From the NCBI GenBank assembly GCA_048941015.1, contig JBHLNZ010000003.1, forward strand, positions 60,797 to 124,796: 64,000 nt of DNA, read 5' to 3'. The translations under genes were made by a program, and so were the position numbers. This document shows positions 692-4,282 of the stretch, piece by piece (position 1 is the first letter of the stretch; each line of letters opens with the position of its first letter). The notes below the pieces were generated by a model, which made no database searches, was not told the DNA's origin, and was given only the letters and a program-made list of their open reading frames with translations. Origin of the DNA: Promethearchaeota archaeon. GTDB taxonomy: Archaea > Asgardarchaeota > Lokiarchaeia > Sigyniarchaeales > SOKP01.

Positions 692-795
692 TGGGAAAGG
701 GGGGCTTCGAACCCCCGACCTCACGGTTATCAGCCGTGCGCTATACCAGGCTAAGCCAATGGAGAGAAGCCTTAAAAAAAGGTTTCTACTCTCCC
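692..795 (-). tRNA. tRNA-Ile(GAU) with 30-nt intron (759-788) at position 7/8
   Basis: Spliced product GGGAGAG TG GCTT AGCCTGGTA TAGC G CACGG CT-GAT-AA CCGTG AGGTC GGGGG TTCGAAG CCCCC CTTTCCC A folds as a cloverleaf. Anticodon at 731-729. Intron bounded by 4-bp helix GGAG/CTCC and 3-nt bulges AGT and ATT. Confidence 0.88.
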
Positions 796-2261: not shown

Positions 2262-2726
2262 ATGCAAAATGATCAAGATAAAAAGAAGAAACCTTTTGAT
2301 AAACTTAAAATAACTAACAATGATGGATTAAATATTTCTTATGATCAAAAGCAACTTGAAGATCTTTATCCTAATTTAATGTCAGAAATTTCGAATAAAA
2401 AGAAAGCCTTAAAAATAAATTCAATAAGTTCTGTTCCTCAGGAGAATAAAAAAAAAGAAAATCATTTTAATAATTATAACGAAGATCTGAGTAATCCAGG
2501 TGCGATAGACTTTATCCGACGATGTGAGAATGAAGAACAAGCGATCGAAATATTGAATTATCTTTTAAAAAGAAATGAAATTACAAATGATAAGTTTAAC
2601 TTATTAATGAATCAAATTGTTAAAAAAGACGGATTAAAAAGGCTTATAATCGAAAGTGGTGGTAAAAAAACTCCAGGTTATTATGAGAGAAACTATTATA
2701 AGAACAAAAAATATAATCAATCATAA
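2262..2726 (+). CDS. DUF2095-like conserved archaeal protein
   Basis: P.AIDFIRRC..EEQAIEI.NY..KR.EI and K.PGYY motifs. Confidence 0.75.
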   Translation: MQNDQDKKKKPFDKLKITNNDGLNISYDQKQLEDLYPNLMSEISNKKKALKINSISSVPQENKKKENHFNNYNEDLSNPGAIDFIRRCENEEQAIEILNYLLKRNEITNDKFNLLMNQIVKKDGLKRLIIESGGKKTPGYYERNYYKNKKYNQS

Positions 2727-2740
2727 ACCACTGTAATTAA

Positions 2741-2829
2741 TGATTTAGATTAATGATGAACTTATGACAAGTGTTTAGAGCTACTGCTCGTAGCAATGAC
2801 GTTGTCGCCCCAATCTGAAATTTAAATTA
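2741..2829 (+). ncRNA. Double-guide C/D-box sRNA
   Basis: Box C ATGATGA (2753-2759), D' TAGA (2776-2779), internal hairpin GCTAC/GTAGC, C' ATGACGT (2796-2802), box D CTGA (2815-2818), 11-bp terminal stem 2741-2751/2819-2829. The D guide is complementary to the LSU rRNA P-loop consensus. Confidence 0.85.
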
Positions 2830-3079
2830 AAGAAGCATTATTAATTTTTTTTATAAAATCAAAACCTTTTTGGGTTAAATTATACCCGTTTTCATTTTTA
2901 AATATTAAATTCAGATCTAATAGCACTGGTATTCTACCCTTTATGCATTCTAAAGGAACTCCTGAGAAGATCTTTATCGTTTCAAAATCTCTAGCACCTT
3001 GACTAATAGCAATAAAAATTTCAACTCCCATATTTCCGAGTAAGTACTTAAGATTCGCGTAGTTATCTTCTTTAATCAA
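2822..3079 (-). CDS. Small winged-helix HTH protein
   Basis: 85 aa; L.DLNLI.K...GYNLTQKG wing motif. Confidence 0.7.
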   Translation of the reverse strand: MIKEDNYANLKYLLGNMGVEIFIAISQGARDFETIKIFSGVPLECIKGRIPVLLDLNLIFKNENGYNLTQKGFDFIKKINNASLI

Positions 3080-3121
3080 TTTATCATACCTAATTTTAAT
3101 TTTATTTTAAAATATTTGAAA

Positions 3122-4282
3122 TTAAATCTTTTTAGGTTCATATTTCTTCGCAACTACGGGTTTCGATTCTTTTGGTAATAATTTCCTTAAATACTCTGGA
3201 AAAGAAGTTGTTATTTGAATATTTGTTTTTAAAACAATATATCTTTCACTTTTATATTTTAATTCTTCAATAACATCATATTTTTTAAGAAAATCTAGAG
3301 AAGAATTTAAATATTCTAATGTTCTTTTTGAAACTAAATTAGGTAATTTATCTCTAGGAATTAATCCATTTCTTAATTCGGATAAGACATTATATTTTTT
3401 AGGATCTGATACTATTTGAAATAAAGTAAACGTATCTTCCTCCAACTTTTCTTTACCCATATTTTCATATTGACTAAAATATTCTTGAACCTTTGGAAGT
3501 AAAATATCTATTAAATCTCTCTCAACTTGCTCTGAAGCTTCTTCCAGATATTCAATCACACTATCAGGAGGTATTCTTTCAGCATTTACTTCTTTTAATA
3601 ATAAAACGTATTTTTCAACAATCCCAATTTGATTAATAAAAATGAACTGTTTTTCAACCAAAATATCAATTAATTCATTAAAGCTCAATTTAGGGAAATT
3701 TTCAATAAACCATTCTCTCAGACCTTCTGATGTGATAGGACCCTTAGACAATTTTTTTAGGGTTAAAAAAATATGTTTTTTATTCAATAATGCTGCAATT
3801 TTTTCTTCTTCACTTTTTTCTCTAGTTTCTTCAACAGCACCCCAGTACAACTCTTTTACCCATAATTTGACCAATGAATTATTCGTATGAATAATTTCTT
3901 TATCTTTTTCTTCAAAATTATTTATATCATTAATATAAAAAGCGGTAAATATCTCCTCATTAGATTTAAGCCTTTCGGAAAATTCTTCGAGCAAACCTAA
4001 AATGCTTTGTTCGATTTCTGGATTTGTTTGTTGGTTGAAAATTAATGATACCATTAACATGTCTTGATTTCCTCTTGCCCAATCAGAATGAATTTCGAAA
4101 TAATAATTCATTGAATTTTTGCTTTCGAAAGAATGAGTAAAAAAACCTTCACTAACAGTCTGATCCATAATGTTTGCTATTCTAAGTGATAATGCATCAT
4201 CTAGCATTGATTCAGGATATGAATAAAATACGATAGGTCCAATTTTTCGATGAAAGTATGAAAGAGCGGCAATGGTTTTCAA
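3122..4282 (-). CDS. Longin/uDENN-like domain protein with C-terminal winged-helix-like repeats
   Basis: N-terminal LSYFHRKIGPIVFYSYP and ARG...MVSLI resemble uDENN/NPRL2/folliculin longin motifs; two helix-plus-beta-wing segments follow. Confidence 0.6.
   Translation of the reverse strand: MKTIAALSYFHRKIGPIVFYSYPESMLDDALSLRIANIMDQTVSEGFFTHSFESKNSMNYYFEIHSDWARGNQDMLMVSLIFNQQTNPEIEQSILGLLEEFSERLKSNEEIFTAFYINDINNFEEKDKEIIHTNNSLVKLWVKELYWGAVEETREKSEEEKIAALLNKKHIFLTLKKLSKGPITSEGLREWFIENFPKLSFNELIDILVEKQFIFINQIGIVEKYVLLLKEVNAERIPPDSVIEYLEEASEQVERDLIDILLPKVQEYFSQYENMGKEKLEEDTFTLFQIVSDPKKYNVLSELRNGLIPRDKLPNLVSKRTLEYLNSSLDFLKKYDVIEELKYKSERYIVLKTNIQITTSFPEYLRKLLPKESKPVVAKKYEPKKI

Follow-up and report, generated by a model that had tools for sequence, protein, structure and literature searches.

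The P-loop guanosine of 23S rRNA that is Gm2251 in E. coli carries one of the few rRNA modifications common to all three domains of life. In bacteria it is made by RlmB, a stand-alone, protein-only methyltransferase that needs no guide RNA, and its product nucleotide is the same as the one predicted below for an RNA-guided system; eukaryotes place Gm2251 by means of a snoRNA, and the Loki-type Asgard archaea are close relatives of the eukaryotes. The yeast guide, snR67, directs Gm2619 (equivalent to E. coli G2251) and Um2724 (PMC11121408), and an earlier note on the DNA analysed here, made from the sequence alone, was right that it guides the P-loop nucleotide. Archaeal dual-guide box C/D sRNAs have C, D', C' and D boxes and a 12-nt D spacer, obey the +5 rule and have two guides that address sequence-distant sites within one rRNA domain, and for three of the seven archaea studied a C/D guide to G2251 (alignment position G2520) has been predicted (PMC4644070). 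The same work gives Sac-sR110 of Sulfolobus acidocaldarius without a predicted target (PMC4644070, additional file 1). When we paired it by hand, the D' guide CGCCGCUCCAGU matched the P-loop, taken without its Sac flanks, with +5 on the second G, and the D guide CAACGCGACGAG matched helix 89 on the Sac rRNA line (UCGUCGCG) with +5 on U2460. We found no description of Asgard C/D sRNAs in the literature searched.

Judged by its sequence and its relatives, the segment 2741–2829 (+) of the window (the whole stretch of 64,000 nucleotides that was analysed, on host contig C64) is a genuine box C/D guide RNA gene in a Loki-type (Asgard) archaeon. The earlier note had proposed such an RNA, with all four boxes, a terminal stem and a hairpin between D' and C', and the anatomy, conservation and covariation described here agree with it; even the ends it gave are exactly those of the 11-bp terminal stem. 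The features of the locus are as follows.

2706–2718 (+): promoter-like A-run (BRE-like) and TATA-like ATATAATC, centred some 27 nt before the terminal stem begins
2741–2751 (+): 5' strand of the 11-bp terminal stem, AUUUAGAUU, partner of 2819–2829
2753–2759 (+): C box AUGAUGA, without variation in 21 distinct genus sequences and present in all fetched orthologues
2760–2775 (+): D' spacer of 16 nt, ACUUAUGACAAGUGUU, comprising CUU (2761–2763), A (2764), UGACAA (2765–2770) and GUGUU (2771–2775)
2776–2779 (+): D' box variant UAGA, its GA invariant in the genus, directly abutting the hairpin stem
2780–2794 (+): internal hairpin GCUAC-UGCUC-GUAGC with a 5-bp stem that shows compensatory changes
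2796–2802 (+): C' box variant AUGACGU, its G and A invariant and its U nearly invariant in the genus
2803–2814 (+): D guide UGUCGCCCCAAU, 12 nt, of which positions 3–11 from box D pair with the P-loop
2815–2818 (+): D box CUGA, invariant in the genus and seen in inspected orthologues
2819–2829 (+): 3' strand of the terminal stem, AAUUUAAAU, partner of 2741–2751
2845–2852 (+): T8 run 16 nt beyond the stem, probably serving as an archaeal terminator

The distance from the C' box to box D is exactly 12 nt. The D' and C' boxes are off consensus, yet they keep the GA dinucleotides needed for a K-turn, which are invariant in the genus; the orthologues have NNGA as their D' box, and in genus g14 it is the canonical CUGA. 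A single-sequence fold recovers both the terminal stem and the hairpin (z = -2.7 against shuffles). A strict C/D pattern (C box, spacer, NNGA, C'-like box, 11–13-nt spacer, CUGA and a terminal stem score of at least 6) matches this locus alone on the two strands of the 3.59-Mb genome, and a looser scan (RUGAUGA...CUGA with a terminal stem score of at least 6.5) finds two loci in the same 3.59 Mb. As to how typical this architecture is, the genome-wide pattern scans thus found essentially this locus only; either this is a mesophile with few C/D sRNAs, or its remaining sRNAs have short stems or divergent boxes.

No Rfam family attains its gathering score at the locus. In a permissive scan of the locus strand the weak matches are almost all to C/D snoRNA families (those compared include snR67, RF01177; snoPyro_CD, RF00095; and snoR31, RF00353), the top sub-threshold match being snoR31 with 26.4 bits against a required 45. 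The snR67 model gives 15.8 bits where its gathering score is 55, in a match that lies out of register with the RNA; what the two share is the target, both being box C/D guides for the universally conserved P-loop guanosine, and the second target of snR67 is U2724 and not the helix 89 site described below. The sRNA family is absent from Rfam and belongs to a well-known RNA class. Compared with the described archaeal dual-guide sRNAs, it has an 11-bp AU-rich terminal stem, a hairpin-closed C'/D' motif (K-turn) in place of the short K-loop and a D' spacer of 16 nt, and its host is a mesophilic Asgard archaeon. The locus is otherwise an ordinary C/D guide RNA, and its feature of some interest is the lengthened D' spacer.

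BLAST finds DNA of the sRNA in 40 of the 42 genomes of the genus, and a covariance model made from the 21 distinct genus sequences finds it as a single copy in 82 of the 101 genomes of the order (Promethearchaeia). By family, there are matches in 71 of 81 genomes of f1, nine of 14 of f2 and the single genome of f3, and in none of the four of f4. In the order-wide alignment each of the 16 stem pairs shows changes in both strands, and paired cells make up 95.2%; these pairs include all 11 of the terminal stem and all five of the hairpin (98% of whose cells are paired), and within the genus the hairpin shows compensatory changes such as GCUAU/AUAGC versus GCUUU/AAAGC. The covariation score is 0.643, compared with 0.176 in shuffles (none of 500 attains it) and 0.06–0.11 with slid partners, the alignment being one of 39 matches (38 orthologues and one weak second match) fitted to the model structure, which favours that structure. 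Terminal stems of different lineages can be wholly different in sequence and still complementary: AUUUAGAUU/AAUUUAAAU here, GGGC/GCCC in f2 and GACA/UGUC in genus g13. The earlier note had thought the form of the RNA more snoRNA-like than that of compact archaeal sRNAs, and this holds in part; the stem-closed C'/D' motif is real and co-varies, whereas the long terminal stem is restricted to the AT-rich family (the G+C content of the host genome is 29%), and the sister-family orthologues are compact with 4-bp GC stems. A weak second match to the model (22.6 bits, E = 0.08) occurs in L023 at 3065–3124 (-), some 1.5 kb away from the orthologue in that genome; it may be another C/D-like RNA or may be due to chance.

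The host encodes the proteins of a C/D RNP: genes for fibrillarin (264 bits) and Nop (217 bits) are adjacent on contig C58, and the L7Ae gene (79 bits) is on C76. Its 23S gene is split between contig ends, C58 from about 127000 to 129963 (minus strand) and C10 from 1 to 1432. In the host genome the Rfam LSU model matched no more of 23S than its 5' third (C10, model positions 16–1377), and because of this the rRNA of relatives was used first; domain V was located by a DNA search at the end of C58, on the same contig as nop5 and fibrillarin. The host rRNA thus lies elsewhere in the genome, and the earlier statement that it is outside the window was correct.

The host P-loop region on C58 reads GGCUGGGGCGGCU. 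Positions 3–11 of the D guide pair with the P-loop sequence UGGGGCGGC in 9 bp (eight Watson-Crick and one G-U), which is the best site for this guide in host 16S and 23S, and position 5 (C2810) stands opposite the second G of UGGGGCG. With UGGGGCG at 2249–2255 of E. coli rrlH, the second G is G2251 in E. coli numbering, so the P-loop pairing and the +5 nucleotide that had been claimed from the guide are both found in the host's own 23S. At 9 bp the duplex is short, its first pair is at position 3, and by itself the complementarity lacks significance (an equal site in 16S plus 23S is available to 766 of 2000 shuffled guides, or 38%); for this reason the support for the D arm is drawn from the comparison of sRNA with rRNA. 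All 23 genomes in which both the sRNA and the rRNA region are present share one register, every tabulated matched orthologue has a 12-nt D spacer, and the stretch of the guide that is invariant in the genus, GUCGCCCCAA, coincides with the paired stretch. Outside the genus the variants of the guide (GUCGCUCCA, GUUGCCCCA and GCUGCUCCA) are mostly C-to-U changes opposite G. Guide position 2 co-varies with the rRNA: most of f1 has an unpaired A facing an rRNA C, genera g13 and g18 have a G that pairs with this C, and f2 has a C facing an rRNA G. One orthologue (G081) has a single mismatch within the duplex. The comparative evidence makes G2251 a well supported target, and the D arm most likely directs 2'-O-methylation of its equivalent in the host.

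The alignment of both guides to the host 23S, which the earlier note had called for in the expectation of neighbouring sites, gave the D guide its 9 bp at the P-loop and placed the D' guide at helix 89 (6 + 3 bp). The conserved part of the latter, CUU-A-UGACAA, pairs with UUGUCA-C-GAG of 23S (E. coli 2457–2466), a site that takes in the helix 89 junction and 5' strand and lies about 210 nt 3' of the P-loop. In the order as a whole the conserved part of the D' guide is UGACAA after CUU, CUC, CCU or CCC, and its variants go with those of the rRNA. Family f1 has rRNA UUGUCA-C-GAG and a guide with CUU or CUC plus UGACAA; in f2, genera g2 and g8 have UUGUCG-C-AGG with CCU-A-UGACAA, and genus g9 has UUGUCA-C-GGG with CCC-AAU-UGACAA; f3 has UCGUCG-C-GGG with CCCC-GU-CGACGA. 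Helix 1 is paired in all six positions in 23 of 23 matched genomes and helix 2 in all three in 21 of 23. Helix 2 tracks the rRNA (GAG with CUU or CUC, AGG with CCU, GGG with CCC), and in helix 1 the f3 genome shows a double compensatory change (rRNA UCGUCG against guide CGACGA).

Three other searches for targets were set aside. A weak D' candidate near E. coli 2593–2600 (GUCGUGAG, 8 bp with two G-U pairs) was dropped because of the helix 89 covariation; the 19 tRNAs called by ARAGORN gave only G-U-rich matches of 8–11 nt, which we judged to be chance; and a target search with the 10-mer core was abandoned, since such a core is too frequent in an AT-rich genome to be informative. The two guides are also complementary to each other over 5 bp (2765–2769 with 2803–2807, UGACA/UGUCG), and the helix appears in the RNAalifold prediction for the free RNA; its pairs are invariant, hence covariation is uninformative about it, and one pair is broken in two genus sequences.

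The position of box D' relative to this pairing varies. The common layout, UGACAA-N-NNGA, puts +5 on the A opposite U2460, and the D' spacer is 12–13 nt in the sister family and in several orthologues of the same family, compared with 16 nt here. In the host and most of the genus UGACAA is separated from the D' box by three or four extra nucleotides (here GUGU); this GUGU(U) insertion is variable, specific to the lineage and missing from the 12-nt orthologues. The guide core CUUAUGACAA is without substitution in the 21 distinct genus sequences (C22–A31 are invariant and the next 1–5 nt variable), and the insertion varies freely, which indicates that the D' pairing is still under selection. Because the 4-nt insertion shifts the duplex 5 nt from box D', the +5 nucleotide of the host is G2771 opposite rRNA G2456, a G-G mismatch outside the duplex. 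A 12-nt spacing is reportedly necessary for efficient archaeal methylation (Tran et al. 2005), so that the departure of the host spacer, at 16 nt, counts against methylation from D'. Accordingly, with +5 out of register, we take the D' arm in the host to be mainly a pairing arm; the D' arm is predicted to select U2460 ancestrally and in the orthologues with 12–13-nt spacers, and methylation from D' in the present copy is doubtful. In a subclade of genus g12 (L112, L113 and L143) the D' box is GUUA or GCUA and has no GA, and the CUUAUGACAA guide is kept; the pairing is thus separable from a working D' box. The g18 orthologue L096 has the UGACAA guide core in tandem duplicate.

From the anatomy, conservation, structural and guide/target covariation and protein genes described above, we infer expression, RNP assembly and the methylation itself. 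Very probably this is an independently transcribed box C/D sRNA whose D arm addresses G2251 and whose D' arm mainly pairs with helix 89. The RNA would fold with a terminal C/D K-turn under the 11-bp stem and an internal C'/D' K-turn under the 5-bp hairpin, and L7Ae, Nop5 and fibrillarin would bind it to form the RNP. With its canonical 12-nt spacer, the D arm would pair with the P-loop (helix 80) and bring fibrillarin to the second G, giving the Gm2251 equivalent, and the D' arm would pair with helix 89 in two segments (6 bp and 3 bp, with a small internal loop between them). One RNP would thereby join two parts of the peptidyl-transferase region, with the D' arm of the host serving chiefly as a tether or folding arm. 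Arms that only pair, for tethering or folding, have been proposed for some eukaryotic snoRNAs. For archaea, chaperone sRNAs were proposed by Dennis et al. (PMC4644070). A further step, which we put forward tentatively as a real possibility but something less than probable, is that in the host and most species of the genus the 3–4-nt insertion turned D' from a guide for U2460 into an arm that holds helix 89 independently of methylation; if true, this would be a natural archaeal C/D RNP arm kept solely for rRNA tethering or folding.

The alternative that survives best, possible but rather doubtful in our estimation, is that both arms methylate in the host, D at G2251 and D' at U2460 or a neighbour, with the four extra nucleotides looped out. 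Such a role would suit the invariance of the CUUAUGACAA core beside a varying insert, but a pairing-only role predicts a conserved guide equally well; it would suit the conserved GA of D' and the conserved C' box, but a symmetric RNP requires a conserved C'/D' motif anyway, and the g12 subclade has lost the D' GA and retains the guide. The +5 position over U2460 in the orthologues with 12–13-nt spacers also speaks for two methylated sites, although in the host itself G2771 faces G2456 as a mismatch beyond the duplex. There is in addition the precedent of Sac-sR110, which by our own pairing has guides to both G2251 and U2460. Its two target regions are the same as here with the arms swapped (P-loop on D', helix 89 on D); it is compact (about 56 nt) and without an internal hairpin, and unlike in Sac-sR110, U2460 is out of register in the host copy. 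A D arm for G2251 with a D' arm that mainly pairs is the reading we retain, and the presence of 12-nt as well as 15–16-nt D' spacers among close relatives offers a natural comparison bearing on whether spacer length controls methylation in vivo. With their conserved predicted guide for G2251, the Loki-type Asgard archaea would be a lineage to which the RNA-guided route to this modification extends.

The flanks of the gene bear on a very improbable alternative, in which the element would be either a motif due to chance or an L7Ae-binding K-turn within the 3' UTR of DUF2095, the gene upstream. Most of the inspected genus orthologues have, at a similar distance, an A-run and after it TTTAAY, TTTTATAA or ATATAAT, and a T run lies about 15–45 nt downstream in most genus orthologues; such placement of an A-run and TATA-like element is the usual geometry of archaeal promoters, and archaeal transcription is terminated by oligo-T. 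This recurrent promoter-like element of its own argues against a UTR, as does the BLAST identity, which in most genus genomes is limited to query 44–129, that is, to the RNA itself, and stops at its ends. The RNA does begin 15 nt past the stop codon of ORF 2262–2726, and L7Ae has been reported to bind some archaeal mRNAs (PMC5539422), but both guides are conserved order-wide and co-vary with the rRNA, which would be needless for a protein-binding UTR element. A chance motif is excluded by the conservation and covariation. The weakest proposal, that the D' guide UUAUGACAAGUGU binds immediately 3' of the P-loop so that both guides lie on one continuous rRNA stretch, is almost certainly wrong: it rested on likeness to a eukaryotic sequence, no support for it was found, what follows the P-loop in host and genus 23S is GGCUCUCUCUAGAAAA and not the predicted ACACUUGUCAUAA (which has no match at up to four mismatches on the sense strand of the relatives' rRNA, just as the predicted D' target AACACUUGUCAUAAG has no rRNA match at 2–4 mismatches in the host genome or the relatives' rRNA), the GUGU(U) part is variable and absent in 12-nt orthologues, and the target that co-varies with the guide is helix 89, some 210 nt downstream.

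The neighbours of the sRNA gene include, besides the adjoining DUF2095 gene (window 2262–2726, +), rpl15e (1475–2059, -; Pfam Ribosomal_L15e, 241 bits), which also adjoins it, and in genomes of several other genera (G071, G075, G080, G081, G096, G101, G102 and G107) the distance between the sRNA and rpl15e is between a few hundred and a few thousand bases. The close relatives of the host L15e protein come from metagenome-assembled genomes of Promethearchaeota/Promethearchaeia (Asgard, Loki-type), some of them entered under other Asgard phylum names. On the other side an ORF at 2822–3079 (-), of 85 amino acids with a TTG start and sub-threshold winged-helix matches, has an 8-nt overlap with the 3' strand of the terminal stem. 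Farther off, window 700–758 (-) gives an Rfam tRNA match of 40.5 bits (model positions 8–63) at a place where ARAGORN makes no call, perhaps a tRNA gene that is split, partial or interrupted by an intron.
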